Shown here in pieces: positions 3,473-61,749 of a stretch of 64,000 nucleotides of DNA. The stretch is taken from contig JACPKR010000038.1 in assembly GCA_016186945.1 (NCBI GenBank), positions 15,472 through 79,471 on the forward strand, written 5' to 3'. The translations under genes and the position numbers were made by a program. Below the pieces are notes generated by a model. The model did not search any database and was not told the origin of the DNA. It saw only the letters and a program-made list of their open reading frames with translations. The DNA comes from Deltaproteobacteria bacterium (GTDB lineage: Bacteria; Bdellovibrionota_B; Oligoflexia; Oligoflexales; Bog-1112). The first letter of the stretch is position 1. Each line of letters starts with the position of its first letter.

Positions 3473-4222
3473 ATGATTTCGATTATTTTTGGCATTCTCC
3501 TTCTCGTCGTCTTACTTTTCAACACGATTAAGATTCTCAACGAATATGAGCGAGCGGTTGTGTTCCGATTAGGCCGCTATACGGGAATCCGAGGGCCTGG
3601 ACTTATCATCCTTATTCCGGGTATCGAGAAGATGCGACGGGTCGACCTGCGCACAATCACAATGGACATTCCCTCTCAGGATATCATCAGTCGAGACAAC
3701 GTAACGCTCAAGGTCAACGGTGTCGTTTACTTCCGCGTCGATGTGCCTGACAAGTCTGTCATTGCGGTGGAAGACTACCTGCAAGCTACCGCGCAAATTT
3801 CTCAGACGACTCTTCGCTCCGTCATTGGCCAATTTGAGCTGGATGAAATCTTGTCGAACCGTGAATTGATCAACAGCAAGTTGCAGACCATCCTAGACGA
3901 ACAAACAGAGCCATGGGGGATCAAAGTGACGGTGGTGGAAGTCAAAGCGATTGACCTTCCCATCGAAATGCAAAGAGCCATGGCCAAGCAAGCACAGGCT
4001 GAGCGAGACAAGCGTGCGAAAGTGATTTCCGCAGAAGGAGAACTTGCCGCGTCTAAGAAGCTAGCCGAAGCCGCGGAAATTCTAGCAACACAGAAGAACG
4101 CCATCACCCTCCGCTACCTCGAAACGATGCGAGAAATTTCCATAGGCGAAGGTAAGTCGACGACCTTCTTTCCCCTTCCCGTCGACTTTCTTATGAAGGT
4201 GCTCAACCCTAAGGACGCCTAA
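3473..4222 (+). CDS. SPFH/band-7 (stomatin/slipin-like) protein
   Basis: N-terminal [14 protein letters not shown]...GPGL motif and a coiled-coil tail. Classic NfeD-stomatin operon arrangement. Confidence 0.9.
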
Positions 4223-4260
4223 CTTGTGGCAAGGAGGAGCTTTGGATTAACTTTGTTAAT

Positions 4261-4426
4261 TATAGTATTTGGGAAAAAGAATTTGTGGAGAGGACCTTTT
4301 TTGAAAAAAAGTTCCCCTCCACACCTCCCCCAAAAAACTTTAGATATTGAAGTTTTTAAAAAGGGGCTTGGGGAAAGAACTTTTTTCAAAAAGTTTTTCC
4401 CCAAATTGATTATCTTGAATACTATA
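4261..4426 (+). mobile_element. MITE-2 copy A (full length, includes flanking TA dinucleotides)
   Basis: TA|TAGTATTTGGG...GAATACTA|TA. Internal long hairpins GTGGAGAGGACCTTTTTT/AAAAAAAGTTCCCCTCCAC and GGGGAAAGAACTTTTTT/AAAAAGTTTTTCCCC. Five other copies are in the window. Confidence 0.8.
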
Positions 4427-4860
4427 GTAGAAACACTGCGCAATCTTGGATTAACAAAATCCATGCAGATTGCAGAGTAAGCGCTTTATGCCCTCTTTCA
4501 ATAAACTGTTGGATAATCTCAGGAAGGATTGCATTACTCGTAGAGAAGCATGTTACCTTTAGAAAGGCGGGCCAGAGTCATGACATGAAAAACGTTACCC
4601 ATGTTTTTGAATTTACTGACGAATAGCCTTTCCCTTTGTCGTAAGGCGTCTCGTTGCTGTTTCAAATATTCCAAACCGAGATCGGTCAGCCCTTGATAGA
4701 TCTTACCCGTCTCGGAATCAAAGATAATAAGTTCACTTATATCCGGCTTGTTTTCTCGGGCCTCTGCAAAACTCGCTTGGAAGGATAAAGCGAGGTTGCC
4801 GAATAGACAAAATTCCCTAACAGGCTAGTTTTGTTTTGTTTTGCCCGGTTTAAAGGGAAT

Positions 4861-4982
4861 GGGGCAAGGAGGTGGTTTGGAGGAAACTGCGCAGCTGGTT
4901 CCTCCAAGAAATCCGGGGGAGGCGACGCTTCCCTCGCCCCCCCAACCCCCCCTCTCCCTAGTTGCCCCAAGTGGCTTACGCG
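4861..4982 (+). mobile_element. MITE-1 copy 1 (left TIR missing)
   Basis: GGGGCAAGGAGGTGGTTTGGAGGAAACTGCGCAGCTGGTTCCTCCAAGAAATCC...CCCCAAGTGGCTTACGCG, shared with 15 other loci. Confidence 0.8.
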
Positions 4983-6936: not shown

Positions 6937-7102
6937 TATAATTTCAAGATAATCAATTTGGGGAAAAACTTTTTGAAAAAAGTTCTTTCCCCAAACCCCT
7001 TTTTAAAAACTTCAATAGTTAAAGTTTTTTGGGGGGAGGTGTGGAGGGGAACTTTTTTTCAAAAAAGGTCCTCTCCACAAATTCTATTTCTCAAAGACTA
7101 TA
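6937..7102 (-). mobile_element. MITE-2 copy B (full length)
   Basis: Reverse complement of copy A, flanked by TA on both sides. Begins 12 nt after the stop at 6925. Confidence 0.8.
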
Positions 7103-9181: not shown

Positions 9182-9330
9182 TATAGTATTTGGGAAAACG
9201 AATTTGTGGAGAGGACCTTTTTTGAAAAAAAGTTCCCCTCCACACCTCCCCCCAAAAAACTTCAAATACTGAAGTTTTTGAAAAGGGGGTTGGGGAAATA
9301 ACTTTTTTCAAAAAGTTTGTCTGAAATTCT
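9182..9330 (+). mobile_element. MITE-2 copy C (right end degenerate)
   Basis: The left 140 bp match copies A and E. Similarity decays after AAAAAGTTTGTCTGAAATT. The degenerate end overlaps the kinase ORF start. Confidence 0.7.
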
Positions 9331-10625
9331 TGATCCTCAATCTCTTGTCCACCTCGCTGCTTGCTGTAACACCGGCCCATCTTATCAAGCGGGTCCATTT
9401 TCCCCCTCGCCTTTCACAGGAGGTGGCCTACACCCTTTACGATTCCGCAAGTCTGAAAGCGACTCTGGAAGAAAGGTCCGACATTCTTCAGAAAGCAAAT
9501 CGCCTTGCGAATATTCTTAGCACCAAGCTCCCGGTCCGCCGCTCTAAAATTCAATACATGGTCGCGTTTATTGAAAAAAATAGGCAAGAGCACCCTGATG
9601 TCATAGGACTTGGTTCCCTCTACATTCCCAAAAATCACGAGCTTCCTTTTTCAATTCAAGTTTATGACAATGGACACACCTACATCAACCTTGAAGAGGC
9701 TGATCCCGAGAAGAAAAAAGGAGGCTATAAATCGTTTGCCCGGGCCCTCGACTACGATAACGAAACCTTCTACGCCCAACTACGTACCGAGGTGAAAGAC
9801 TTTTACAATCTTAAAAAACAAATCCGTGAACTGGAAATCATGGATCTCCTTCGTGACAGCCCCGAAGCTTTGAACTACCGAGACACCGATATTTACGTAG
9901 TCAAAGAATTCGATGAAGCGAAACATATCCTGTCCATTCATACAGAGGTATATGACACCGATCTTCGCTCTTTCAAAGGGCAGAGGGAGGATACCGAGCA
10001 GCTTCTCACGCTTCTGAAAGGAGCAACAAAAGGTCTTCATGCCATGCATCAACACTCCGTCGTTCATCGTGACTTAAAAGCTGCTAACTACTTTTTTAGG
10101 GAACGAGCCGGGACTAGGGAAATTGTCATCGCCGACTTCGGCTTGAGTCAGAGCGCTGACGATCCTCGCTTTGGCCTTAATCTGTGCGGTACCCGTGGGT
10201 TCATGGCACCAGAATCATGTCATCGCTGGGCTTCGGACCGATCCGCCTTCAGAACTCTAGCCGAGGGGAAAGCTGCGGACGTCTTTTCCCTGGGAATGGT
10301 GTTCCGGGAACTCATCTGGGGTGATCAGGCAAGCCCCGACAGCAAAGCTCTCACCCAACTCAACTACGCAGCCCTGCCCCCGAAAACAAGTGGGAAAACG
10401 CTTGACCCTAAGGAAGTTGAAAGTCGCTTCGAGAGTTTCGTCACAGCCTATGGAGCATCCTACCCTCAAGTTGGAGACGTGAGGCCCAGGACCAAATGCC
10501 TTTTCATTCTAAACGCACTGACTTGGAAAATGTTAGACCCTCATGCCCATGACAGGCCCTCAGCTGAATATGTACTCCAGAGTCTGCAGGATCTGGATCG
10601 CACCCAGCTTTGCGCAAACTCGTGA
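9330..10625 (+). CDS. Ser/Thr protein kinase (Hanks type)
   Basis: HRDLKAANYF catalytic loop, DFGLS and GTRGFMAPE activation segment. The start is uncertain (TTG at 9330 lies inside degenerate MITE-2). Confidence 0.75.
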   Translation: MILNLLSTSLLAVTPAHLIKRVHFPPRLSQEVAYTLYDSASLKATLEERSDILQKANRLANILSTKLPVRRSKIQYMVAFIEKNRQEHPDVIGLGSLYIPKNHELPFSIQVYDNGHTYINLEEADPEKKKGGYKSFARALDYDNETFYAQLRTEVKDFYNLKKQIRELEIMDLLRDSPEALNYRDTDIYVVKEFDEAKHILSIHTEVYDTDLRSFKGQREDTEQLLTLLKGATKGLHAMHQHSVVHRDLKAANYFFRERAGTREIVIADFGLSQSADDPRFGLNLCGTRGFMAPESCHRWASDRSAFRTLAEGKAADVFSLGMVFRELIWGDQASPDSKALTQLNYAALPPKTSGKTLDPKEVESRFESFVTAYGASYPQVGDVRPRTKCLFILNALTWKMLDPHAHDRPSAEYVLQSLQDLDRTQLCANS

Positions 10626-10695: not shown

Positions 10696-12309
10696 ATGAG
10701 GAATACCGTGAATCTCGAACACGAAATACAACGACGCCGTACGTTTGCGATCATCTCCCACCCTGACGCCGGCAAAACGACCATTACGGAAAAATTGCTC
10801 CTTTACGGGGGAGCGATCCAGATGGCTGGGACAGTGAAAGCCAAACGCTCAAAAAAATTCGCCACTTCGGATTGGATGGAATTGGAAAAGCAGAGGGGCA
10901 TTTCCGTAACAAGTTCTGTCATGAGTTTTCCTTACGCAGACCATGCCATCAACTTGATCGACACCCCCGGTCACCAGGATTTTTCCGAAGACACGTACCG
11001 CACCCTGACAGCAGTGGATAGCGCCCTCATGTTGATTGACTGCGCTAACGGTGTGGAGACCCAGACCAAGAAGCTTTTCGAAGTCTGCGCCCTGCGTAAA
11101 ACCCCTATCATCACATTTGTTAACAAACTCGATCGACCTGGACGTGATCCGTTCTCCCTATTGGAAGAGATTGAAAATGTCCTGGGTATTGCCACGTATC
11201 CCGTCACCTGGCCCATTGGCATGGGAGATGAATTTCGTGGGGTCTACAACCGCAAGACTCGGGAATTTCTGATCTACGACAGAAATTCGGACCGATCGCG
11301 TAAGGTGCCTCTCAGGGGCCTTTCCCTTGCCGATCCTCTCGTGGATCAAGAACTCGGAGACGAACATGCAAGAGCGTTGCGTGAGGACATCGAGCTACTT
11401 GATGCTGCAGGCGACAGCTTTAAGCTCCAGGCTTACCTGGAAGGAACACTCGCACCCGTTTTTTTTGGAAGCGCGCTAAACAACTTTGGGGTGGAGCTGC
11501 TGTTGGAGAATATTGTCCATCTTGCTCCTGGACCCCAGGCGAGGGATACAGCGCAACGAACGGTTATGGCAGATGAGAAGAATTTCACCGCCTTTGTCTT
11601 CAAAATCCAAGCTAACATGGACCCCGCGCATAGAGACCGTGTGGCCTTCCTCCGCATTTGTTCTGGCAAATTTGAACGTGGCATGAAAGCCCATCATGTG
11701 CGCCTGGGCCGCTTGATGCGCCTGGGACGCCCCACACATTTCATGGCGCAGGATCGTTCCCTAGTCGATGAAGCTTTCGCAGGTGATATCGTCGGTATCC
11801 ACGACCCCGGCTTGTTTCGCATCGGAGATTCCCTGTCATGCGGAGAAACCCTTAACTTCACAGATATCCCCGTGTTTGCTCCGGAACACTTCGTGCGTGT
11901 TGAACTCGCTGACCCACTCAAATCCAAGCAACTGAGAAAGGGCCTGGATCAACTTTCAGAGGAAGGAGCTGTTCAAGTTTTCCGCCCCCTTCACTCTAAC
12001 GATCAGTACTTGGGTGTTGTGGGCCTTCTTCAAATTGATGTTGTAAAATACAGGATCAAAGCAGAATACGGCGTTGACGTGAATATGAAAGCGCTGCCCT
12101 ATACTGCCGCTCGTTGGATTTCCTCGGACGACAAGAAAGCACTCGAAACGTTCAAAATCGACCAGGCAACCCATATCGTGCTGGACTCACATGAACATCC
12201 AACGCTGCTGCTTGATCATGACTGGCGTTTGAAATTTTATCAGGAACGGCACCCTGCTATCAAGTTTTTGCAAGTTTCGGAAGCCGTTCAAACGACCTAT
12301 AGTATTTAA
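10696..12309 (+). CDS. prfC: peptide chain release factor 3
   Basis: RRRTFAIISHPDAGKTT G1 motif, DTPGHQDF and NKLD. ATG at 10696 chosen over the track's upstream extension. The last 3 codons and stop lie in the TA+MITE-2 sequence. Confidence 0.9.
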   Translation: MRNTVNLEHEIQRRRTFAIISHPDAGKTTITEKLLLYGGAIQMAGTVKAKRSKKFATSDWMELEKQRGISVTSSVMSFPYADHAINLIDTPGHQDFSEDTYRTLTAVDSALMLIDCANGVETQTKKLFEVCALRKTPIITFVNKLDRPGRDPFSLLEEIENVLGIATYPVTWPIGMGDEFRGVYNRKTREFLIYDRNSDRSRKVPLRGLSLADPLVDQELGDEHARALREDIELLDAAGDSFKLQAYLEGTLAPVFFGSALNNFGVELLLENIVHLAPGPQARDTAQRTVMADEKNFTAFVFKIQANMDPAHRDRVAFLRICSGKFERGMKAHHVRLGRLMRLGRPTHFMAQDRSLVDEAFAGDIVGIHDPGLFRIGDSLSCGETLNFTDIPVFAPEHFVRVELADPLKSKQLRKGLDQLSEEGAVQVFRPLHSNDQYLGVVGLLQIDVVKYRIKAEYGVDVNMKALPYTAARWISSDDKKALETFKIDQATHIVLDSHEHPTLLLDHDWRLKFYQERHPAIKFLQVSEAVQTTYSI

Positions 12310-12464
12310 GATAATCAATTTGGGGAAAAACTTTTTGAAAAAAGTTATTTCCCCAAGCCCCTTTTCAAAAACTTCAGTATTTAAAGTTTTTTGGGGGGAG
12401 GTGTGGAGGGGAACTTTTTTTCAAAAAAGGTACTCTCCACAAATTCTTTTTCTCAAATACTATA
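12298..12464 (-). mobile_element. MITE-2 copy D (full length)
   Basis: Fills the entire prfC-glnS spacer, flanked by TA. The glnS ATG is 14 nt beyond it. Confidence 0.8.
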
Positions 12465-14186: not shown

Positions 14187-14325
14187 GTAACCCGTAAGCT
14201 GTTTGTGGCAAAAAGGGAGAGGGGGGTTTGGGGGGGCGAGTGAAGCGTCGCCTCCCCCGGATTCCTTGGAGGAACCAGCTGCGCAGTTTCCTCCAAACCA
14301 CCTCCTTGCCTTAAGCGGCCTATGC
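14187..14325 (-). mobile_element. MITE-1 copy 2 (full length, degenerate TIRs)
   Basis: GTAACCCGTAAGC...GGGAGAGGGGGGTTTGGGGGGGCGAG...TTGGAGGAACCAGCTGCGCAGTTTCCTCCAAACCACCTCCTTGCC... Confidence 0.8.
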
Positions 14326-18040: not shown

Positions 18041-18087
18041 GCAAGGAGGTGGTTTGGAGGAAACTGCGCAGCTGGTTCCTCCAAGAA
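18041..18087 (+). mobile_element. MITE-1 copy 3 (core hairpin only)
   Basis: GCAAGGAGGTGGTTTGGAGGAAACTGCGCAGCTGGTTCCTCCAAGAA in the divergent promoter region. Confidence 0.8.
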
Positions 18088-18173: not shown

Positions 18174-19694
18174 ATGCATGACGATGTTCGTTGCCGAAGT
18201 TTGTGGCTCGCTCTGACTCCTATGTTGTTTCTTGTCACATTGTTAGCTTTCAATCTCAAACTTTACGGTGACGGAGCAGCCGCTGGCCCTAACCAGGTTG
18301 CCCTTCTTTTGTCTGCTATGTTTGCAACATGCGTTGGTGTTTTTGCCTTGGGCATTCCCTATAAAAACATTGAGTCTGCCATCCTTGAATCTACAAGTCA
18401 TATTTTGCAGGCTATTCTCATCCTGTTGGTGGTGGGAGCTTTGATCAGCCTTTGGATACTGAGTGGAATCGTTCCGACTCTGATTTATTATGGCTTGAAG
18501 CTTCTCTCTTCCTCGATTTTTCTTCCCGTATCATGTGTCATTTGTACGATTGTCTCGCTTGCGACTGGTTCCAGTTGGTCGACCGCGGGAACGGTTGGAG
18601 TCGCCTTGATTGCAGTGGGCAAGGCACTTGGAATTCCCGAAGGCCTGGTCGCAGGTGCCATCATTTCCGGAGCATATTTTGGGGACAAGATGTCTCCTCT
18701 TTCCGACACAACCAACATGGCTTCTGCTATGGCCGGCGTCGATCTTTTTGACCACGTCAGACATATGCTTTACACAACCGTTCCTGCTTACACATTGGCT
18801 ATTCTGGGGTTTGTAATCACCGGGTTCTTCGTCACTCCCGCAGGGGGGGCGGACGGGAACATAACGGAAGTCCTTGGCGTCATCACTCAGAATTTCAACG
18901 TCGGACCACAGCATTTGTTTGTTCCGCTCCTGGTCTTGTTTCTCATAAGAAGGAAGATAGCTGCTTTACCTGCTTTGGCTGTAGGCTGCGTGCTCGCAGT
19001 TCCGTCAGCACTTCTATTTCAGCAACAATTTTTGCATCAAACTTTAGGAGAATCTTACGATGGCGCCAGTGTGTTCAAAATGATTATAAGCACAGCTGCC
19101 AACGGCTTCTCCAGCAAGACGGGATCGAGCTTGGTCGACGGCCTTCTCTCACAGGGGGGAATTTCGAAGATGCTAAGCACGCTTTGGCTCTTGATATCAG
19201 CGATGGTGTTCGGGGGAGCTCTGGAAGGATCGGGCATGTTGGCGCGTATTTCCCAAGCTTTGCTCAGCAGTGTCAGGAAAACGGTGAGCCTGATCGGAGC
19301 AACCCTGGCCAGCTGCCTTTTTGTCAACATGACTGTCGGTGACCAGTACCTTGCCATTGTCCTACCGGGCCGCATGTTTCGTTCGATCTATGCACGATAT
19401 AAACTCGATGCGCGCAATTTATCCCGCGCTCTCGAAGATGCCGGGACGGTTACGTCTGTGCTCGTGCCTTGGAACTCGTGCGGAGCCTACCATGCTGCCA
19501 CTCTGGGAGTGGCGACCTTGACGTACTTGCCGTTCTGCTTTTTCAACATTGCTAGCCCCTTGGTTTCGTTCGCTCTTGCTGCCCTTGGTTGGACAATCCT
19601 GAAGAGTTCAGAGAGCCAAGAAGAACAGAAATCGGATGCGATTTCCATTCCGGACCAAAAAAGGGTATCGTCATTTAGTGAACGTAATGCGTAA
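18174..19694 (+). CDS. nhaC: Na+/H+ antiporter NhaC family
   Basis: About 12 predicted TM segments and NhaC-type conserved blocks (GSSWSTAGT, GAYFGDKMSPLSDTT). The last 3 codons plus TAA lie in the MITE-1 TIR. Confidence 0.8.
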   Translation: MHDDVRCRSLWLALTPMLFLVTLLAFNLKLYGDGAAAGPNQVALLLSAMFATCVGVFALGIPYKNIESAILESTSHILQAILILLVVGALISLWILSGIVPTLIYYGLKLLSSSIFLPVSCVICTIVSLATGSSWSTAGTVGVALIAVGKALGIPEGLVAGAIISGAYFGDKMSPLSDTTNMASAMAGVDLFDHVRHMLYTTVPAYTLAILGFVITGFFVTPAGGADGNITEVLGVITQNFNVGPQHLFVPLLVLFLIRRKIAALPALAVGCVLAVPSALLFQQQFLHQTLGESYDGASVFKMIISTAANGFSSKTGSSLVDGLLSQGGISKMLSTLWLLISAMVFGGALEGSGMLARISQALLSSVRKTVSLIGATLASCLFVNMTVGDQYLAIVLPGRMFRSIYARYKLDARNLSRALEDAGTVTSVLVPWNSCGAYHAATLGVATLTYLPFCFFNIASPLVSFALAALGWTILKSSESQEEQKSDAISIPDQKRVSSFSERNA

Positions 19695-19764
19695 CCCGCT
19701 TTTGGCAAGGAGGTGGTTTGGAGGAACGCTGCGCAGCTGGTTCCTCCAAGAATTCCCTTGGGGC
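19684..19764 (+). mobile_element. MITE-1 copy 4 (left TIR plus core, right half missing)
   Basis: GTAATGCGTAACCCGCTTTTGGCAAGGAGGTGGTTTGGAGGAACGCTGCGCAGCTGGTTCCTCCAAGAATTCCC. Confidence 0.8.
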
Positions 19765-19796
19765 AGAAGCGATACAAATTCCTGGAGGAAGAGACT

Positions 19797-20887: not shown

Positions 20888-20924
20888 CTTGGGGGGCAAG
20901 GAGGTGGTTTGGAGGAAACATTAC
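20888..20924 (+). mobile_element. MITE-1 copy 5 (mini derivative: left arm joined to the ATTAC tip)
   Basis: CTTGGGGGGCAAGGAGGTGGTTTGGAGGAAAC+ATTAC. The folP stop codon (20921-20923) lies in the tip. Confidence 0.6.
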
Positions 20925-21891: not shown

Positions 21892-22024
21892 ACTTGGGGC
21901 AAATAGGGAGAGGGGGGTTTGGGGGGGCGAGGGAAGCGTCGCCTCCCCCAAGGGATTTCTTGGAGGAACCAGCTGCGCAGTTTCCTCCAAACCACCTCCT
22001 TGCCCCAAGTGGCTTACGCATTAC
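21892..22024 (-). mobile_element. MITE-1 copy 6 (near full length)
   Basis: ACTTGGGGCAAATAGGGAGAGGGGGGTTTGGGGGGGCGAGGGAAGCGTCGCCTCCCCCAAGGGATTTCTTGGAGGAACCAGCTGCGCAGTTTCCTCCAAACCACCTCCTTGCCCCAAGTGGCTTACGCATTAC. Confidence 0.85.
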
Positions 22025-22038
22025 CTTGGAGAAACTTC

Positions 22039-22746
22039 TTGGTCGACACAATAGAAATAAAGAAAAACTATCTCAAAACAGTCCTCTTTGGTCTTGGATT
22101 TTTTGCCCTTCTTGCTTGCGGGGACGACGCTAGTGCAGACAATTTTGGTTTAATCTCCCGACTTACGGACCACGCCTTTGCGGGCGAATATGCTAACGAC
22201 CCCGCCTTTGATTCTGCTCAACAGGCTTTTTCCCCTCTATCGGCTATAGATCATCAGGGAGGCAAAACGCTCGCGAGTCTTACAAAAAAACAAATTCGTC
22301 GCAACCGCCCGCAAGGCAAATGCCTTCGTTGGGTTCGTATCGCTCTTACGAAATACAAATGGCAACGTGAACAGGATAAACGAAAAAGCAAACGCACGTT
22401 CAGTTTCCACTCCCTTCCCCGCGATTCCCACCCCTTCGCTAAAAACATATTGTCCCCTGGCCGATCAGCCGCCGACTTCATGGGCTGGGCTCTTCAGAAT
22501 CCGGCTTCTCTATGCACCGAGTTGGGATTGGCAAATATTACGGATTTGCCTTACCACACGACTTTTGATGGTATGGTTTTCGTTTACGGGCGTGGCAAAT
22601 GTGGCTTTCACAGAAGGTGGGGGCATATTGAAGTCGTTACGAACGCCGAAAAAAAAGAAGTTTGCTCCGATCACTGTCGTAAACTTCAACCTGATTGCAA
22701 GCCCGATATCGTTCTGGCGCCTGTAACACACTGTGGCTGGCTATAG
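22039..22746 (+). CDS. lipoprotein, possible CHAP/NlpC-P60-like Cys-His hydrolase
   Basis: In-frame TTG at 22039 gives a lipobox (LFGLGFFALLAC). GKCLRWVRIAL (Cys) and RRWGHIEVV (His) follow the order of papain-like amidases. The TAG stop is the first 3 nt of MITE-2 copy E. Confidence 0.4.
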   Translation: MVDTIEIKKNYLKTVLFGLGFFALLACGDDASADNFGLISRLTDHAFAGEYANDPAFDSAQQAFSPLSAIDHQGGKTLASLTKKQIRRNRPQGKCLRWVRIALTKYKWQREQDKRKSKRTFSFHSLPRDSHPFAKNILSPGRSAADFMGWALQNPASLCTELGLANITDLPYHTTFDGMVFVYGRGKCGFHRRWGHIEVVTNAEKKEVCSDHCRKLQPDCKPDIVLAPVTHCGWL

Positions 22747-22908
22747 TATTTGAGAAAAAGAATTTGTGGAGAGTACCTTTTTTGAAAAAAAGTTCCCCTC
22801 CACGCCTCCCCCCAAAAAACTTTAGATATTGAAGTTTTTGAAAAGGGGTTTGGGGAAATAACTTTTTTCAAAAAGTTTTTCCCAAAATTGATTATCTTGA
22901 ATACTATA
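22742..22908 (+). mobile_element. MITE-2 copy E (full length)
   Basis: TA|TAGTATTTGAG...GAATACTA|TA, about 95% identical to copy A by eye. Confidence 0.8.
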
Positions 22909-24814: not shown

Positions 24815-24937
24815 CAAGGGGATTTCTTGGAGGAACCAGCTGCGCAGTTTCCTCCAAACCACCTCCTTGCCACAAGAGGAACCAGCTGCGCAGTTTCCTC
24901 CAAACCACCTCCTTGCCACAAGCGGGTTGCGTATTAC
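24815..24937 (-). mobile_element. MITE-1 copy 7 (core duplicated in tandem, right TIR)
   Basis: Two successive GGAACCAGCTGCGCAGTTTCCTCCAAACCACCTCCTTGCCACAAG units, then CGGGTTGCGTATTAC. Fills the whole spacer between convergent stops. Confidence 0.8.
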
Positions 24938-30445: not shown

Positions 30446-30519
30446 TCAACGATTTCTACTTATATGAATAACTTGATAAGCAGGCGAGAAGCAACCGGAA
30501 ATTAGCTACGTCAAAATCG

Positions 30520-30640
30520 CGTAGGACACTTGGGGCAAATAGGGAGAGGGGGGTTGGGGGGGCGAGTGAAGCGTCGCCTCCCCCGGATTTCTTGGAGGAA
30601 CCAGCTGCGCAGTTTCCTCCAAACCACATCAATGCATTAC
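30520..30640 (-). mobile_element. MITE-1 copy 8 (internally deleted), flanked by a 14-bp direct repeat
   Basis: CGTAGGACACTTGGGGCAAATAGGGAG...CCTCCAAACCACATCAATGCATTAC. CTACGTCAAAATCG occurs at 30506-30519 and 30641-30654. Confidence 0.75.
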
Positions 30641-30688
30641 CTACGTCAAAATCGAGCAAGGAAGGGACTTCCTTGCTCCTAATGTGGG

Positions 30689-36810: not shown

Positions 36811-36863
36811 TTGGGGCAAGGAGGAGGTTTGGAGGAAACTGCGCAGCTGGTTCCTCCAAGAAA
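36811..36863 (+). mobile_element. MITE-1 copy 9 (core only)
   Basis: TTGGGGCAAGGAGGAGGTTTGGAGGAAACTGCGCAGCTGGTTCCTCCAAGAAA. Confidence 0.8.
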
Positions 36864-40039: not shown

Positions 40040-41311
40040 ATGACGACGTATTGTGCAAGATTAATTGCATCGTTTGTTCTCCTTTACTCAGCTTCCTTGC
40101 TGGCTACAAACGGAGCAAACCTTATCAGTTCCACCACAGCAAGTCGGGGGATGGGAGGAACGGGCGTAGCGCATTTCCATGATGAAAGAACTGCGGCCAT
40201 TATGAGTCCTTCCCTGCTTTCAAAGTCCATGCTCCCAGACGGAGGGTGGAACTTCGGTCTTGATCTGACGTATCTGAACGGGAACGTCAGGTCTGATGTT
40301 CGCAACTATACCGACACGGTTTCCAGTGGGGAGAAGGAGAGTAAGCACAGGCCTGGGTACATTCCGGCGATCGCTGCCGTTAACCGGGTAAATGAGCACC
40401 TTGTGTGGGGTTTCGTTTACTACGGAGCTGCTGGTTCTATGGTGGACTACAAGGATGAAGTGACTCACAGCAAGCTTAAGGTCGAATACGGAATGGCGCG
40501 CCTCGGTGTAGCCGCGAGTTACAGACAAGAAAAATTCAGCTTCGGTCTGGCCCCTCTCTATAACATGGGAAATTTTGCCATCAATACGAGAGAGGCAAGC
40601 GGTGAACAGTCTTCGCGCAAACCCGACACTCAAGGTGCGTTTGGAATTCAGGTGGGGGCATCGTTGTTTCTCCTGGACGAGTTGACCGTCTCGTTAACCT
40701 ACTTGAGTCCAGCAAAGTTCAAATATAAAGGGGTTGTAGATCTCGATGCCTACACGCTTACAGAAGCTGATGGTAAGCTTGATGACCTTTCCCTAGACCA
40801 ACCCACGGAACTTGCGTTTGGGCTAAGCTGGTTGCCCATAACTGACCTTGGCCTCGCCTTGGATTTCAGAAGCTTAGACTGGGCAGCTACGGAAGGCTTC
40901 GGAGATATCGGCTGGAAGCGTCAACTTGTCATCGCCCTCGGAGGCAAGTACAGAATCGATGCCTTCACTCTGCGAGCTGGGGTGAACATGGCCAATGGTC
41001 CTATTGAAGATGTCTCGGGCGAAGTCGGTTTGGAAACAAGCGATGTCAGTGGGAAGGCGCTCACCAAAGCGGGGATCAGTGGTCTCAACGCAGTCGGCTT
41101 CCCTGCTATCAGTGAGACGCATTACACACTTGGCCTTGGTCACATGGTGAACGAACAATTTTCCTGGGATCTCGCCTTTATGATGAGTCCTAAGGCTAGC
41201 CTTGAGCGAAGCGGCACGGTTACCAGCCCAGCAGGATCGGCTCCTTACTCCTTAAAAACGTCAGTCTCTCAATACGCCTTTTCCGCAGGGGTGAGTTATA
41301 ATCTTTGGTAG
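40040..41311 (+). CDS. outer-membrane transport protein (FadL/OMPP1/TodX family)
   Basis: Signal peptide, alternating beta-strand pattern, and a C-terminal aromatic residue (YNLW). Confidence 0.6.
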   Translation: MTTYCARLIASFVLLYSASLLATNGANLISSTTASRGMGGTGVAHFHDERTAAIMSPSLLSKSMLPDGGWNFGLDLTYLNGNVRSDVRNYTDTVSSGEKESKHRPGYIPAIAAVNRVNEHLVWGFVYYGAAGSMVDYKDEVTHSKLKVEYGMARLGVAASYRQEKFSFGLAPLYNMGNFAINTREASGEQSSRKPDTQGAFGIQVGASLFLLDELTVSLTYLSPAKFKYKGVVDLDAYTLTEADGKLDDLSLDQPTELAFGLSWLPITDLGLALDFRSLDWAATEGFGDIGWKRQLVIALGGKYRIDAFTLRAGVNMANGPIEDVSGEVGLETSDVSGKALTKAGISGLNAVGFPAISETHYTLGLGHMVNEQFSWDLAFMMSPKASLERSGTVTSPAGSAPYSLKTSVSQYAFSAGVSYNLW

Positions 41312-41360
41312 CAAGGAGGAGGTTTGGAGGAAACTGCGCAGCTGGTTCCTCCAAGAAATC
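41311..41360 (+). mobile_element. MITE-1 copy 10 (core only)
   Basis: GCAAGGAGGAGGTTTGGAGGAAACTGCGCAGCTGGTTCCTCCAAGAAATC, occupying the whole 47-nt spacer between convergent stops. Confidence 0.8.
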
Positions 41361-42390
41361 ACTTGCTGTCACTCGAAAGTAGATGAAGGTTGGGAGCGTG
41401 TTCGGATTTTCGATCTTGCGCAACGAGGAAGCGGTGGCCAGGGAGAACCACAAACGCTTCGGCACCGCTTATATTCTTAGGCAATCCCCAAGTGTTGACA
41501 AAAGTCATTTTGTTCTGATCGAGGGAAAGTTCACCAATTTGAGCAATCATCCTGCATTTCTGACTTAGGATGTACAGATTGCCTTCACTATCTGCAGAGA
41601 CCTCGCTTAAATCACAGGGACGGAAGTCTGCGGGAAGTTTCCAGTAATGCAACGGTACGTATGACGTGTGGGACGTATTGAGTGGAAATGTGTCCTTGCT
41701 CCTTATTAACGAACTTATCTGATAACCTTCCGCTGGGTCATCTGCCGGGCCGAATTCAATCATCGCTGCTTTCTCTCGTTCCTTCGCAACCATAATGTGA
41801 CCGTTTTTGAGTAGAACCATACCTTCTCCCAAGGCATTTTCCTTGAGGTCACGCCGATTCCTTGTCAGCTCGAAGTGTTCCAGGTTGATCACTCCTTCGA
41901 CTTCTGTGCTGTCCCTGCGGATGACGACGATTGAGGCAAACTGCTCATGAAGGAGGTATATTCTCCCGGAGGCATCGCTTTTTATAGCTTCCCACTGACT
42001 TGTCATACTTTTCTTGAGCTTGTGACAGTCGGGAATGCGGTCACTGTGACAAATAGCAAAGTAATCAACGATCGAGTCGGTGTAGTCGATGACCTCGGAG
42101 TTTTCCACGAGTCTGCTTGTAAGATTGAAGTGGGTGAAAAGAACTTGGGCGTATCTGTCTCCTACCGCTAAGAGTTCGAAGGTATCGTTTTTCAGAGGAC
42201 GAGCGTCCAGCCCGGATATTTCTCGCAGGGGAAGGTAGAACGTCTGGTCAATCTGTAGCTCGTTTGCCCCCGAAGCGTAATTTTCAAACGTTCCACTCAC
42301 AAAGGACGTGAGGTAAAGGATGACCGAAAAATAGCCCGCCATCATTATGATTCTTATAGGTCTGCGTCTTAACGCTGCTGCACTTACCAT
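41359..42390 (-). CDS. membrane-anchored beta-propeller-like protein (SdiA-regulated/YjiK-like?)
   Basis: N-terminal TM segment. Recurrent blade-like motifs (EISGLDA..., GEGMVLLKNGHIMVAKE, DLSEVSADSEGNLYILS, GAEAFVVLPGHRFLV). Confidence 0.4.
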   Translation of the reverse strand: MVSAAALRRRPIRIIMMAGYFSVILYLTSFVSGTFENYASGANELQIDQTFYLPLREISGLDARPLKNDTFELLAVGDRYAQVLFTHFNLTSRLVENSEVIDYTDSIVDYFAICHSDRIPDCHKLKKSMTSQWEAIKSDASGRIYLLHEQFASIVVIRRDSTEVEGVINLEHFELTRNRRDLKENALGEGMVLLKNGHIMVAKEREKAAMIEFGPADDPAEGYQISSLIRSKDTFPLNTSHTSYVPLHYWKLPADFRPCDLSEVSADSEGNLYILSQKCRMIAQIGELSLDQNKMTFVNTWGLPKNISGAEAFVVLPGHRFLVAQDRKSEHAPNLHLLSSDSK

Positions 42391-43943: not shown

Positions 43944-44033
43944 AAAGTTTATATTGAAGTTTTTGAAAAGGGGCTTGGGGAAAGAACTTTTTTCAAAAAG
44001 TTTTTCCCCAAATTGATTATCTTGAATGCTATA
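43944..44033 (+). mobile_element. MITE-2 copy F (right half only)
   Basis: AAAGTTTATATTGAAGTTTTTGAAAAGGGGCTTGGGGAAAGAACTTTTTTCAAAAAGTTTTTCCCCAAATTGATTATCTTGAATGCTA|TA. Confidence 0.75.
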
Positions 44034-44479: not shown

Positions 44480-44643
44480 GCGTAAGCCACTTGGGGCAAG
44501 GAGGTGGTTTGGAGGAAACTGCGCAGCTGGTTCCTCCAAGAAAAATCATGGGGGAGCGACCCTTCGCTTTGCTCAGGGCAGGCTTTTCCCTCGCCCCCCC
44601 AAACCCCCCTCTCCCTATTTGCCCCAAGTGGCTTACCCATTAC
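44480..44643 (+). mobile_element. MITE-1 copy 11 (long subfamily, both TIRs)
   Basis: GCGTAAGCCACTTGGGGCAAGG...core...plus the extra segment GAGCGACCCTTCGCTTTGCTCAGGGCAGGC...TTTGCCCCAAGTGGCTTACCCATTAC. Confidence 0.85.
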
Positions 44644-45675: not shown

Positions 45676-45746
45676 GGGCAAGGAGGTGGTTTGGAGGAAA
45701 CTGCGCAGCTGGTTCCTCCAAGAAATCCACGGGGGGGAGGCGGCTC
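45676..45746 (+). mobile_element. MITE-1 copy 12 (core plus the ...GGGGGGGAGGCGGCTC variant end)
   Basis: GGGCAAGGAGGTGGTTTGGAGGAAACTGCGCAGCTGGTTCCTCCAAGAAATCCACGGGGGGGAGGCGGCTC, the same variant end as the 49410-49498 copy. Confidence 0.8.
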
Positions 45747-49229: not shown

Positions 49230-49498
49230 ATTATGCATAAGCCACGCGGGGCAAGGAGGTGGTTTGGAGGAAACGTAATGCGTAAGCCACGCGGGGCAAG
49301 GAGGTGGTTTGGAGGAAACGTAATGCGTAAGCCACGCGGGGCAAGGAGATGGTTTGGAGGAAACGTAATGCGTAAGCGACGCGGGGCAAGGAGGTGGTTT
49401 GGAGGAAACGTAATGCGTAAGCCACTCGGGGCAAGGAGGTGGTTTGGAGGAAACTGCGCAGCTGGTTCCTCCAAGAAATCCCTGGGGGGAGGCGGCTC
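49230..49498 (+). repeat. MITE-1 copy 13: four 45-bp tandem units of TIR plus left arm, then a complete left half with core hairpin
   Basis: Units start at 49230, 49275, 49320, 49365 and 49410. The unit is GTAATGCGTAAGCCACGCGGGGCAAGGAGGTGGTTTGGAGGAAAC. Confidence 0.9.
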
Positions 49499-52921: not shown

Positions 52922-52949
52922 GGATCCCGCGGTCAAGCCGCGGGATGAC
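52922..52949 (+). repeat. REP-like hairpin element, copy 1
   Basis: GGATCCCGCGGTCAAGCCGCGGGATGAC (7-bp perfect stem CCCGCGG/CCGCGGG, loop TCAAG). Second copy at 59379-59406. Confidence 0.8.
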
Positions 52950-53284
52950 AGACTCAAAAAAGCGGGATGACAGACTCAAAAAAGCGGGATGACAGACTCA
53001 AAAAAGCGGGATGACAGACTCAAAAAAGCGGGAAACAGACTCAAAAAAGCGGGAAACAGACTCAAAAAAGCGGGAAACAGACTCAAAAAAGCGGGAAACA
53101 GACTCAAAAAAGCGGGAAACAGACTCAAAAAAGCGGGATGACAGACTCAAAAAAGCGGGAAACAGACTCAAAAAAGCGGGATGACAGACTCAAAAAAGCG
53201 GGATGACAGACTCAAAAAAGCGGGATGACAGACTCAAAAAAGCGGGAAACAGACTCAAAAAAGCGGGATGACAGACTCAAAAAA
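52940..53284. repeat. 16-unit tandem array of 22-bp (GCGGGATGACAGACTCAAAAAA) and 21-bp (GCGGGAAACAGACTCAAAAAA) units
   Basis: Counted unit by unit. The order is L L L L S S S S S L S L L L S L (9 long, 7 short, 345 bp). Units are otherwise identical. Confidence 0.95.
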
Positions 53285-53296
53285 GTTTGTCCCCCA

Positions 53297-56436: not shown

Positions 56437-56596
56437 GTAATGCGTAAGCCAGGTAATGCGTAAGCCACTTGGGGCAAGGAGGTGGTTTGGAGGAAACTGC
56501 GCAGCTGGTTCCTCCAAGCAATCCCTTGGGGGGGCGACGGTTCCCTCGCCCCCCCAAATCCCCCTCTCCCTATTTGCCCCAAGTGGCTTACGCATT
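56437..56596 (+). mobile_element. MITE-1 copy 14 (full length, both TIRs, left TIR partly duplicated)
   Basis: GTAATGCGTAAGCCAG+GTAATGCGTAAGCCACTTGGGGCAAGGAGGTGG...CTATTTGCCCCAAGTGGCTTACGCATT. Confidence 0.9.
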
Positions 56597-57586
56597 CCAA
56601 ATATCGTCAACCGGCTCATCTTCGTTGCGCATGGAAAGGCCAACGATGCGAGGTCGGAGGGAAGGAGGAAGTATGTCGGGATTGACAACGGGCATCTGTC
56701 TACGAAGTGGAGAAGGGTTGCGCACAGAAAAATCTAATGATGCTAAGATGGCGCGTGCTATATACCAGACAGCTTGATGATCCGTTCCGTGTGCGGTTTT
56801 GATGGCGACCCCCAAGCCTTGCGGAAAATCAGCGTGACGAATACCTAAGCACAAAAGGCCATCTGCACCTTCTTTGGATACAACCTGCCCCATGCACGCT
56901 TTCATGACGATTGAGTCGACCCGGTTCATGCCTCCAATAAGATAAGGGTTGCGCACCATTGCTTCCCAAACCCAATCACTGTCCTTGTTTTTTGCGAGAG
57001 AACTAAAGAGTGTTGCCAATTCCCTCAACCTGAAAGAGACAGTGGGAAGATTACATCCGTCCTTTGCTATGAATTGCGGAGACCATTGAGGACCGAGTGT
57101 CTGGCGTATGACGTCGATAAATCCTTTATGAAAAGGGTGGGTCGGCAAATTATAGCTCACACGTGGCCACCCCTTTAATTGACAACCTCGCAAGAGGGCT
57201 GAATGCTCACCGGAGCAGGTATGATACCAACGACTAGGTTTGCGAATCTGTTTGCCAAATTGTTGAAGAGGAAGAGTGTGAGGTGTTTGCACCAAACGTT
57301 GTTCAGACGGTCTGAGGATACTTTTCGCTAGTTCCAGATGGCAAGGTTCTGCGTTGTGTGAGGACACACCGATGGCCTTTTGCTCCCAGGTTAAACTCTT
57401 GTCCAGCTCCTTCGAAAAGACTTTGATGTGAAATGGTTTGACTGACGAGCGACCGTAGGTCGTGATGTCTCCCCCGTGGGAATGGATCAGCTTATTTCCA
57501 CTTACCCAAGCGACGGCACCTAACTTTGCAACTTCACAAAGGCCTGCTCTTCGGTATTCAACCAATATTTCCCAATGATTTTTCAT
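56588..57586 (-). CDS. asparaginase II (PF06089-like) family protein
   Basis: RSSVKPF, SSHN.EP.H, HTCSGEHSALL, DGCNLPT and KEGADGL blocks in the order of the L-asparaginase II family. The last codons and TAA lie in the MITE-1 TIR. Confidence 0.6.
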   Translation of the reverse strand: MKNHWEILVEYRRAGLCEVAKLGAVAWVSGNKLIHSHGGDITTYGRSSVKPFHIKVFSKELDKSLTWEQKAIGVSSHNAEPCHLELAKSILRPSEQRLVQTPHTLPLQQFGKQIRKPSRWYHTCSGEHSALLRGCQLKGWPRVSYNLPTHPFHKGFIDVIRQTLGPQWSPQFIAKDGCNLPTVSFRLRELATLFSSLAKNKDSDWVWEAMVRNPYLIGGMNRVDSIVMKACMGQVVSKEGADGLLCLGIRHADFPQGLGVAIKTAHGTDHQAVWYIARAILASLDFSVRNPSPLRRQMPVVNPDILPPSLRPRIVGLSMRNEDEPVDDIWNA

Positions 57587-59375: not shown

Positions 59376-60692
59376 TTAGGATCCCGTGGTCAAGCCGCGG
59401 GATGACTTAGGAACTTCGTCGGAACCTTGACTCCGTGACAGGAGTGTCTGAACAGCCGAGGCGCTTGCCCGTATGGTGCCATCGGCGATCTTGAAAAGGG
59501 CATCCTGCATCACTTCTAGAATAATAGCCTTCGCCAGTGTCATGCGAGTGGTCTCATCGTTAGGCCATCTCAGTACATTTTGGCAGAACTTTAATGCAAA
59601 CGGAAAGGTGACTGTAGCCACGGAAACGGTATAGGATTTCTCTGCGAGATAATTCCCAAGTTTTCGCCCAAGTTGGCGCCAGCTGAGGGGTTTTGCCTTG
59701 GGGAACACGAGGTAAATGCGTTTTTCGTGAATTGCCTTCGCAAGCGGAGTGTCCAGTCGCTTTCTCGGAAAGGAACGAAGGAGAAGCTTGTCAACTCCCG
59801 ACTCGGTGATATCCAGGAGGACAGAAACCATGAGGTGCTCCCTGATGTCCTGCCAAAAACGTGTCGGATTGGGAAGAAGATAAGTGCGAATCAAACGGCG
59901 TGCTGAGACTGAAATGATGTTCTTGTTGATGAACGATTGGGTTGTCTCGGCACTGATGAGAAGCCCTGTCCTCAGCAATTCTGTTTTGTCATCCAGAGGC
60001 TCTAGCGCTTCGAAGTCATATTGTTTCGTTGTGGCAACCGCATCGTAGTCCCATAGAGGCAAATGGACGGTGATCTCATCTGGAATCTGATTGAGAAGCG
60101 TTGTAAAGGCTTCGTCTTCATCAAGCAAGACTTTGCAAGCCATGGTGTCAAAGATGTTTCGCAATTCTCTGCTCTCACACATCTTGTCCGCAGCCAGTTC
60201 GAGTAGTCGTAAAGCGAAAGTCATAGCATTCTTATGGTTAGTGTCCTCAAAACGGGAGATCTGCCTGGCGAAGTGGAGGAGAATCTCAGGGAGTCGGGAC
60301 TGAATGAGACTTGCTAAGCTCAAAATGCGCTCAGATTTCATGCGAAAATCGCTAGCAAGTTCGTCGTAGGCCGCAGCGAAAGCCAAGAGTGCATCGCCGT
60401 GCTGCCATCCTTTTTCCGCTTGAAGGTGTGCTTCGAACCAGAAGGGCGCTGAAGTTTCGTCCAGTGTCCACGGAAGTTCCATCAAATTTCGTACATGCAG
60501 CGCGAAGGTCTCGTTGTCGGCCTGGGTATTATGGAGCGAAGCCAGCCACGCCCCGCTTGTAAACGTCGCGAAGGAAGCAAGAATTCCTATTTCAGCGGAC
60601 GGATCATCATCCTGAGTCACCGAGCTGCCACGAGCTGCCAGGGAAAACACACACAACGAGAGTGTAATGATCCGCCTCAAAGATGACCTCAT
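59376..60692 (-). CDS. hypothetical secreted protein (438 aa)
   Basis: Signal-peptide-like N-terminus (ITLSLCVFSLAARG). Mostly helical composition. No family recognised. Confidence 0.5.
   Translation of the reverse strand: MRSSLRRIITLSLCVFSLAARGSSVTQDDDPSAEIGILASFATFTSGAWLASLHNTQADNETFALHVRNLMELPWTLDETSAPFWFEAHLQAEKGWQHGDALLAFAAAYDELASDFRMKSERILSLASLIQSRLPEILLHFARQISRFEDTNHKNAMTFALRLLELAADKMCESRELRNIFDTMACKVLLDEDEAFTTLLNQIPDEITVHLPLWDYDAVATTKQYDFEALEPLDDKTELLRTGLLISAETTQSFINKNIISVSARRLIRTYLLPNPTRFWQDIREHLMVSVLLDITESGVDKLLLRSFPRKRLDTPLAKAIHEKRIYLVFPKAKPLSWRQLGRKLGNYLAEKSYTVSVATVTFPFALKFCQNVLRWPNDETTRMTLAKAIILEVMQDALFKIADGTIRASASAVQTLLSRSQGSDEVPKSSRGLTTGS
59379..59406 (+). repeat. REP-like hairpin element, copy 2
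   Basis: GGATCCCGTGGTCAAGCCGCGGGATGAC, 8 nt after the ihfB-like stop. Also encodes the last 9 residues of the convergent gene. Confidence 0.8.
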
Positions 60693-60758
60693 TTAAAAAC
60701 TTCTTTAATTTCAATAACTTAACTTATCAAAAAGGACAAGGAATTTCTGTGGTGGATG

Positions 60759-60806
60759 GCAAGGAGGTGGTTTGGAGGAAACTGCGCAGCTGGTTCCTCC
60801 AAGAAA
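60759..60806 (+). mobile_element. MITE-1 copy 15 (core only)
   Basis: GCAAGGAGGTGGTTTGGAGGAAACTGCGCAGCTGGTTCCTCCAAGAAA. Confidence 0.8.
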
Positions 60807-61609: not shown

Positions 61610-61749
61610 GTAATGCGTAAGCCACTTGGGGCAAATAGGGAGAGGGGGGTTTGGGGGGGCGAGGGAAAAGCCTGCCCTGAGCAAAGCGAAGGGTCGCTCC
61701 CCCAAGGGATTTCTTGGAGGAACCAGCTGCGCAGTTTCCTCCAAACCAC
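61610..61749 (-). mobile_element. MITE-1 copy 16 (long subfamily, one TIR, truncated at the core)
   Basis: GTAATGCGTAAGCCACTTGGGGCAAATAGGGAG...GCCTGCCCTGAGCAAAGCGAAGGGTCGCTC...TTGGAGGAACCAGCTGCGCAGTTTCCTCCAAACCAC. Confidence 0.85.

Follow-up and report, generated by a model that had tools for sequence, protein, structure and literature searches.

The window analyzed here is a stretch of 64,000 nucleotides (nt) from a metagenome-assembled genome (MAG) of a Deltaproteobacteria bacterium (assembly GCA_016186945.1, contig JACPKR010000038.1, positions 15,472 to 79,471). It carries ordinary chromosomal genes, with no transposase and no tyrosine (Y1) transposase of the type associated with repetitive extragenic palindromic (REP) sequences (RAYT) among the ~50 window open reading frames (ORFs) that we annotated with Pfam. 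The window proteins are deposited as MBI26029xx/MBI26030xx, and the hypothetical proteins have HYW48_* locus tags. At 18041–18087, in a spacer between two divergent genes, lies a 47-nt sequence, GCAAGGAGGTGGTTTGGAGGAAACTGCGCAGCTGGTTCCTCCAAGAA, that an initial annotation had described as the core of a MITE (a miniature inverted-repeat transposable element) embedding a perfect Shine-Dalgarno (SD) sequence. The 9-nt SD complement is indeed present: AAGGAGGTG (hereafter SD1) occupies 18043–18051 and is the exact complement of CACCUCCUU. The proposed strand duality also holds, in that the SD complement is read in the sense direction and the anti-SD-like CACCUCCUU on the opposite strand. The second purine motif that had been reported, GGAGGAA (SD2), and its pairing partner TTCCTCC were both located, at 18056–18062 and 18076–18082. 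Taking the results below together, we consider that the 47 nt are probably the solo core of an abundant, lineage-specific, non-coding and selfish MITE/REP-like repeat, and that its SD likeness is probably not a selected ribosome-binding site (RBS).

Searching the window with the 24-nt left arm of the core, GCAAGGAGGTGGTTTGGAGGAAAC, gave 20 matches at three or fewer mismatches, 14 on the plus strand and 6 on the minus strand, against an expectation of 0 from 100 dinucleotide-preserving shuffles. With tandem units merged, and with a relic (4222–4246) and a truncated copy (61697–61749) added, the census comprised 17 loci in 64 kb, 12 on the plus strand and 5 on the minus strand. The earlier count of 10 plus-oriented and 6 minus-oriented copies was right in finding many copies on both strands but not in its numbers. 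The repeat covers 2.8% of the window, at a density of about one copy per 4 kb, and the cores are at least 96% identical among dispersed copies. All 16 perfect 9-mers (AAGGAGGTG/CACCTCCTT) found on either strand of the 64 kb lie inside the repeat.

The complete element is approximately 147 bp long and is best represented by the copies at 56453–56598 (plus strand) and 21892–22024 (minus strand). In the best copies, its terminal inverted repeats (TIRs) are perfect over 25 bp, the left one being GTAATGCGTAAGCCACTTGGGGCAA and its right partner TTGCCCCAAGTGGCTTACGCATTAC. Read from the left, the modules are the TIR, GGAGGTGG, hairpin 1, hairpin 2 (GGGGGAGGCGA...TCGCCCCCCC, G/C-rich), a C-rich tract and the right TIR; the core consists of the SD-like purine tract and a hairpin of 9–10 bp. 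Hairpin 1 has the arms TTGGAGGAA and TTCCTCCAA (18054–18062 and 18076–18084 in the flagged copy) around a 13-nt loop with the overlapping palindromes TGCGCA and CAGCTG. The hairpin had been described correctly for the second SD-like motif, which is in the stem, but not for the first, which is positioned 5' of the hairpin. SD1 sits 22–30 nt from the element end, where the left TIR meets hairpin 1, and because of this layout the bases 'GCAA' within the SD-like 9-mer form the inner end of the 25-bp TIR. A long variant of approximately 180 bp carries an insertion in hairpin 2 (44480–44643 and 61610–61749). For RNA of either orientation, the whole element is predicted to fold into a single long hairpin (−91 and −96 kcal/mol, with z = −10 and −9). 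Its size, TIRs and copy number support the proposed assignment to MITE-type repeats.

All 17 loci are intergenic, and approximately 8 of them lie 11 nt or less from a stop codon (20896, 24819–24937, 36816, 41311, 49233–49494, 56437–56598, 60759 and 61610–61749). Copies occupy 4 out of 5 convergent spacers and 3 out of 6 divergent spacers. Between co-directional genes, 4 copies are in sense and 5 in antisense orientation, which bears out the earlier impression that there was no obvious orientation bias. The individual copies are as follows.

4222–4246, plus strand: relic CTTGTGGCAAGGAGGAGCTTTGGA, with the inner TIR and an SD-like tract but no hairpin; directly 3' of the stop of a Band-7 gene.
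4860–4981, plus strand: consensus 18–142 at 96% identity, comprising the core, hairpin 2 and the larger part of the right TIR; outer left TIR missing.
14207–14310, minus strand: core, hairpin 2 and C-rich tract, with both TIRs of a diverged subtype (GCATAGGCCGC...); antisense between the GlnRS gene and the gene for a 715-aa hypothetical protein.
18041–18087, plus strand: flagged solo core; in the spacer between the divergent genes for GH1 (start at 18005, minus strand; 35 nt away) and NhaC (start at 18174; 86 nt away), upstream of both.
19684–19763, plus strand: left TIR (variant AACCCGC) and core; the TIR's TAA at 19692–19694 is the NhaC stop, and GTG 19713 is the mis-annotated AlkB start.
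20893–20919, plus strand: left arm only (SD1 and SD2, no hairpin partner); between convergent stops, 10 nt from that of AlkB and 1 nt from that of DHPS.
21892–22024, minus strand: near-complete copy (consensus 1–133 at 100% identity) with truncated right TIR; divergent spacer by the DHPS start.
24819–24937, minus strand: two tandem cores with a 46-nt period after a diverged left TIR; convergent stops 11 nt and 3 nt away.
30527–30627, minus strand: copy with SD1 replaced (ATTGATGTGG) but both hairpins and the right part kept; sense between two minus-strand genes.
36811–36863, plus strand: solo core, T-to-A variant AAGGAGGAGG; antisense to two flanking minus-strand genes, 6 nt from the upstream gene's stop.
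41311–41365, plus strand: solo core, T-to-A variant; makes up the whole convergent spacer, its first G being the last base of the TAG stop of a FadL-like gene.
44480–44643, plus strand: long variant, its hairpin 2 enlarged by an insertion of ~35 nt; left TIR without its first 5 nt, right TIR complete.
45676–45728, plus strand: core with an alternative right-hand module, GGGGGGGAGGCGGCTC, common to the copy at 49431; 20 nt from the stop of a minus-strand gene.
49233–49494, plus strand: tandem array of five units (left TIR and left arm) and one complete core, with a 45-nt period; antisense between two minus-strand genes.
56437–56598, plus strand: best full-length copy, with all modules; first 16 nt of the left TIR GTAATGCGTAAGCCACTTGGGGCAA duplicated.
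60758–60806, plus strand: solo core; antisense between two minus-strand genes, 8 nt past a DNA-methylase stop and 66 nt before the next start.
61610–61749, minus strand: left-truncated long variant that starts GTGGTTTGGAGG, has no SD1 and has a perfect right TIR; sense between two minus-strand genes, 6 nt past the stop of a GH3 gene.

Solo cores of 47–53 nt with ragged outer ends are found at 18041, 36816, 41311, 45678 and 60759. Hairpin 1 occurs at every locus except the arm-only copy at 20896 and the relic at 4222, and no other module is so widespread. The modules are either absent or present at near-100% identity to the consensus, rather than graded, which therefore indicates recent spread or homogenization. 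The TIR variants (AAGCCAC, AACCCGC and TAGGCCGC) resemble subfamilies. We also considered differential decay as a sign of selection on the core and saw no clean signal, the modules being all-or-none and the TIR variants subfamily-like. Two copies (30527–30627 and 61697–61749) start at GTGGTTTGG and are without SD. The tetranucleotide GTGG sits 2–3 nt 5' of the stem (the canonical REP head is GTAG), and it is there that these two truncated copies start (n = 2).

Local tandem duplication was seen at two places: the TIR plus left arm is repeated five times with a 45-nt period at 49233–49454, and a 46-nt unit is repeated twice at 24830–24922. Both clusters are direct tandems, and neither shows units in alternating orientation. 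The units of the fivefold array have no hairpin partner and are joined at TGCG microhomology, and the array sets ten GGAGG/CCUCC motifs, unpaired, between two minus-strand genes. The sole copy with both ends intact shows no target-site duplication. A 14-nt direct repeat, CGATTTTGACGTAG, at 30514–30527 and 30642–30655 flanks the SD-less copy at 30527–30627 and could be a long target duplication or the trace of a microhomology-mediated event. Just upstream of this copy, after the stop of a 1027-aa gene, is a native terminator-like hairpin, AGCAAGGAAGTCCCTTCCTTGCT. For the core itself, a role as an intrinsic (Rho-independent) terminator was ruled out by the 13-nt loop, the lack of a T-run in either orientation and the lack of a call in a terminator scan; the scan weakly called hairpin 2 of one antisense copy. 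Opposite the SD strand, the right half of the element contains a canonical G-quadruplex motif, GGGGCAAATAGGGAGAGGGGGGTTTGGGGGGG (for example, at 56533–56578; consensus 98–129 reverse-complemented).

The repeat leaves its mark on gene models. The element ORFs listed in the initial annotation exist in the window, and those that start in the element share the element-encoded prefix alone and then diverge. The repeat thus explains the recurrent spurious ORFs, as had been proposed, and an element-encoded small protein was rejected, the ORFs diverging on leaving the element. Positions 4–6 of the TIR form an inward-reading ATG that opens further spurious ORFs (MRKPLGA...). Two unrelated genes, NhaC (19692–19694) and asparaginase II (56588–56590, minus strand), end at the TAA of TIR positions 9–11, and both gene ends agree with the deposited proteins. 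At the alkane 1-monooxygenase gene (AlkB), GTG 19713 is indeed in frame and 28 codons upstream of ATG 19797, but the 28-codon extension that had been derived from it is not real. The NCBI annotation (MBI2602978.1, 390 aa) starts at this GTG, inside the repeat. Homologues of AlkB in a library of 1.84 billion proteins aligned their own residues 1–5 to query residues 29–31, and ATG 19797 is preceded by an SD of its own, GGAGGAAG; for these two reasons, we regard the extension as an annotation artefact caused by the repeat. Judged from the homologues, the true AlkB N-terminus is ATG 19797 (362 aa), and the first 28 residues (19713–19796) are translated repeat. By-products of the repeat in the window are therefore a TIR-borne TAA that terminates two genes, spurious ORFs and wrong start calls.

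When four reading frames of the element were searched as peptides against 5.8 billion proteins, the only matches were four proteins on four other contigs of the same MAG, and therefore the family is, as far as can be seen, genome-wide yet lineage-restricted. The four matching proteins (P0121–P0124) have element-encoded N- or C-terminal tails, and these ends are likely to be annotation artefacts or real C-terminal replacements by insertion. One of the four is an ABC ATPase whose last ~35 residues read through two antisense cores. The element was absent from the closest relative's contig (L003, from ENA), its 35-nt hairpin gave no match in a scan of JGI metagenome contigs, and a blastn search gave no plasmid match. 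Rfam returned nothing at the gathering threshold and, at E <= 10, just meaningless sub-threshold matches to miRNA hairpins. Short-read Logan contigs of the same organism stop inside the repeat. Such a repeat breaks short-read assemblies at every copy and seeds spurious ORFs, and it is behind at least one wrong GenBank start call (MBI2602978.1) as well as the element-encoded protein tails. The MITE/REP-like family, from an uncultivated lineage, is new; repeats of this kind are already known.

The nearest named relatives of the window GlnRS are 61–64% identical and include Oligoflexales/Oligoflexus MAGs, Desulfonauticus, Anaerolineae and gammaproteobacterial methanotrophs, with unlabelled matches reaching 69%. 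The contig of the closest relative encodes two GltX-like paralogues and, after them, a protein of 832 aa in which the GlnRS catalytic and anticodon-binding domains are duplicated. Downstream, its gene order departs from that of the window, with FolB and HPPK in place of the 715-aa hypothetical protein.

We then assessed the SD look-alike as a translation signal. Pairing was computed with the canonical anti-SD GAUCACCUCCUUA, which may differ from the organism's own 16S tail. Against this sequence, the 20-nt regions upstream of 27 confident starts had a median of −6.0 kcal/mol, versus −4.05 kcal/mol for coding controls (Mann-Whitney p = 1e-4), and by this measure canonical SDs appear to be in use in the organism. 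The interval 5–10 nt after SD1 contains no gene start, annotated or plausible, and the nearest real starts are at least 85 nt away. The GTG and TTG codons that had been proposed as start codons following the SD are poorly placed: the GTG shares bases with the SD (spacing 0), and the stem begins with base pairs made by the TTG, 4 nt past GGAGG. Within the window, SD spacing and orientation relative to genes gave no preferred start distance and no strand bias in support of use.

By prediction, SD2 is base-paired in nearly all native contexts, and SD1 is partly accessible, with an unpaired probability of 0.13–0.48 outside the tandem array; in full-length elements, the TIR-closed fold is predicted to bury both SD-like motifs. 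For the antisense CACCUCCUU, the predicted unpaired probability is 0.18–0.94, so that it is free more often than SD1. Over 18 aligned copies, substitutions affect 3 out of 162 positions in SD1 versus 2 out of 546 in the rest of the core, and two further copies are entirely without SD1; hence the perfect 9-mer is not the best-conserved part of the core. The two copies without an SD both lie in sense between co-directional genes (Fisher p ~0.05–0.2 by grouping, with tiny n), a pattern that could hint at counter-selection of the sense SD. An origin of the core from the 3' end of 16S rRNA (hairpin h45 and anti-SD tail) was set aside, the similarity past the 9-mer not being significant (p ~0.09, with the E. 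coli sequence as reference).

We weighed a reading in which the SD likeness has no selected function against several others. In the former, the family would spread or recombine with the help of an enzyme whose gene lies elsewhere in the genome, and copies would survive where insertions are tolerated, that is, in intergenic spacers and mostly a few nt behind stop codons. The SD complement would be incidental to the GGAGG/CCTCC-rich arms or a relic of the source sequence. A stable RNA hairpin in 3' untranslated regions (UTRs) would arise as a by-product in either orientation, much as with REPs; such a hairpin could shield mRNA ends or, at less than 15 nt from a stop codon, stand in the way of terminating ribosomes. 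The orientation-independent distribution points to this palindromic hairpin, rather than to a strand-specific SD, as what matters, if anything does. A translational role of the SD look-alike is not supported. The initial annotation had left the function open among several options; of these, 'none' fits best, and translational effects do not, with no start at a functional distance.

Several observations weigh against a selfish repeat with an incidental SD. The census covers 64 kb of one genome, and mobility is putative: no target-site duplication was found, nor any parent insertion sequence (IS) or transposase among the ~50 window ORFs examined with Pfam. The core hairpin is nearly always kept, while TIRs and right-hand modules are often missing, so the core could be a selected or propagating unit and not a passive remnant. 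The 9-nt SD match exceeds composition and is improbable from composition alone: in a post hoc test, a match of at least 9 nt to the SD consensus on either strand occurred in 0.5% of cases when the 147-nt element was dinucleotide-shuffled and in 0.35% when the 47-nt core was. The SD1 duplex with the canonical anti-SD reaches −18.4 kcal/mol, beyond every native gene in the window (best, −15.4), and by this estimate SD1, if transcribed in sense, should bind 30S subunits, selected or not. In addition, an unrelated second repeat family in the window also has GGAGGTG directly 5' of a GGAG-armed hairpin, a like layout that hints at a shared functional module. Beyond pure chance, the candidate sources of the SD match are an IS RBS relic, a transposase recognition module and real ribosome/SD interactions.

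The recognition module would belong to a REP-type unit, in which the core is a GT(A/G)G-headed imperfect palindrome read as single-stranded DNA by a RAYT or IS200/IS605-like Y1 transposase, the 147-bp form is a mosaic like the bacterial interspersed mosaic elements (BIMEs), and GGAGGTGG is the recognition or guide sequence. We consider this possible but unlikely. The wide distribution of the core hairpin, by far the most widespread module (all loci but 20896 and 4222), fits it, as do the start of two truncated copies exactly at GTGGTTTGG, the absence of observed target-site duplications, the mosaic and tandem architecture, the extragenic, stop-proximal location and the recurrence in the second family of GGAGGTG followed by a GGAG-armed hairpin. 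However, the window has no Y1 transposase or RAYT, the perfect 25-bp TIRs are typical of DDE-transposon MITEs and not of REPs, the clusters are direct tandems instead of alternating inverted pairs, and the likeness of the two families is not significant (p = 0.06). A parent IS offers another source. In IS200 and IS10, the RBS is sequestered, and SD1 with the TTG/GTG by the left TIR might be the remnant of such a translation-initiation control region, its start codon and second SD-like motif locked in the hairpin and kept after internal deletion. That origin, which we rate as distinctly improbable, would account for a better-than-chance SD without present function, and it agrees with the position of the SD 22–30 nt from the element end and of the TTG 4 nt past GGAGG, as the first codon of the stem. 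The ends of IS66-family elements start GTAAGCG/GTAACCG (PMC12888890). The TIR starts GTAA and contains GTAAGCC/GTAACCC, which makes IS66 parentage a weak lead resting on the GTAA(G/A)C start alone. The window holds no parent IS, the 4-nt spacing is short, and the 8-bp duplications typical of IS66 were not seen; outside the element ORFs of the same MAG, no protein starting with MEETAQLVPP or VVWRKLRSWF was detected, although an 11-residue match would be below detection anyway.

The remaining proposals give the motifs a function in RNA. In sense transcripts, a free AAGGAGGUG shortly past a stop codon could hold 30S subunits on standby, act as a decoy for them or capture them after termination, and in antisense transcripts the hairpin with single-stranded CACCUCCUU behind it could serve as an SD-sequestering mimic, in cis or in trans, although we think this very unlikely. 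The improbability of a perfect 9-mer by composition, its standing as the strongest SD in the window and the organism's apparent use of canonical SDs speak for such a role. So do the starts of the sense SD 3–14 nt past a stop codon at 41311, 19705, 20896 and the relic at 4222, the predicted unpaired state of the antisense CACCUCCUU (up to 0.94), and the two SD-less copies in sense between co-directional genes, which would fit counter-selection (Fisher p ~0.05–0.2). Yet a strand-dependent function should give strand bias, and the count was 4 sense versus 5 antisense; spacing to start codons is inconsistent; the genes downstream of antisense copies are mostly without an SD to sequester; SD1 is the most variable segment of the core; and both motifs are buried in the TIR-closed hairpin of full-length elements. 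Least probable of all, and to our minds highly improbable, is a genome-wide modulator of translation, in which sense copies 3–14 nt past stops would park ribosomal subunits, the antisense hairpin with CACCUCCUU, resembling a 16S 3' end, would sponge SDs, and the GGAGGTG and hairpin of the second family would reflect convergent selection. If SD/anti-SD binding did take place in vivo, the family would be a rare mobile repeat that spreads a translation signal genome-wide, and it would be relevant to how strong SD-like sequences away from start sites are tolerated or exploited by cells.

Known repeat systems offer comparisons for the selfish, non-coding repeat that we favor. With the Correia element (CREE) of Neisseria, enterobacterial ERIC/RU and pneumococcal RUP it shares a size of ~100–170 bp, long TIRs that fold the whole element into one hairpin, a non-coding sequence, many near-identical copies in intergenic, stop-proximal positions and both orientations, and the creation of spurious ORFs and altered gene ends. 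Unlike these elements, it has no detected target-site duplication and no sequence match in Rfam or plasmids, many of its copies are solo 47-nt cores or tandem arrays, and it carries a perfect 9-nt SD complement. REP/BIME sequences of E. coli, Pseudomonas and Stenotrophomonas (SMAG) resemble it in their common hairpin unit of ~35–45 nt, their mosaic make-up with accessory motifs, their very high density, their location just past stops and their plausible orientation-independent effects on mRNA 3' ends; work by Liang, Rudd & Deutscher in 2015 is said to have found that E. coli REPs within 15 nt of a stop codon stall ribosomes. By contrast, the present repeat has 25-bp TIRs, direct tandem clusters, no RAYT seen in the window and a head that reads GTGG, within GGAGGTGG, and not GTAG.

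Two further comparisons concern the SD motif. The icaR 3' UTR of Staphylococcus aureus reportedly contains an anti-SD motif, UCCCCUG, and antisense copies of the repeat would likewise put single-stranded CCUCC into 3' UTRs or inter-cistronic RNA, where pairing with an SD may be possible. Unlike the icaR case, there is no consistently placed complementary target, the genes downstream are mostly without a strong SD, and the motif here belongs to a multi-copy repeat and there to a single gene. Neisseria REP2 and Borrelia IR-A/IR-B are repeats that carry a promoter, an RBS and an ATG (Delihas 2011, PMC3184786). They are similar in being dispersed and in having internal stem-loops and an RBS sequence followed by potential start codons. 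However, REP2 and IR-A lie directly upstream of genes, to which they donate the RBS and ATG, whereas here the SD has no gene start within ~85 nt, half of the copies run antisense to the transcription around them and the sole apparent fusion (AlkB) is an annotation artefact.

The second repeat family in the window is also MITE-like. It is ~165 nt long and present in six copies, with the TIR TATAGTATT/AATACTATA and two hairpins with A/T-rich loops. Its copies are as follows.

4261–4426, plus strand: second-family copy.
6943–7102, minus strand: second-family copy.
9182–9348, plus strand: second-family copy.
12305–12464, minus strand: second-family copy.
22742–22908, plus strand: second-family copy.
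43951–44033, plus strand: second-family copy, partial.

In this family, GGGGGGAGGTG stands directly 5' of a hairpin with the arms TGGAGGGGAAC and GGTCCTCTCCA, a layout that parallels the core at 18041–18087. Homology between that core and the second family's hairpin was examined by local alignment and was not significant given the G-rich composition (p = 0.06), a hint at most. One copy of the second family ends 13 nt upstream of the GlnRS start. The window also contains a tandem array of 16 units of 22 nt, in two unit variants (GCGGGATGACAGACTCAAAAAA and GCGGGAAACAGACTCAAAAAA), at 52940–53285, between ndk and an 801-aa ORF with a methyltransferase domain. The hairpin GGATCCCGCGGTCAAGCCGCGGGATGAC seeds this array and is found again at 59379–59406.

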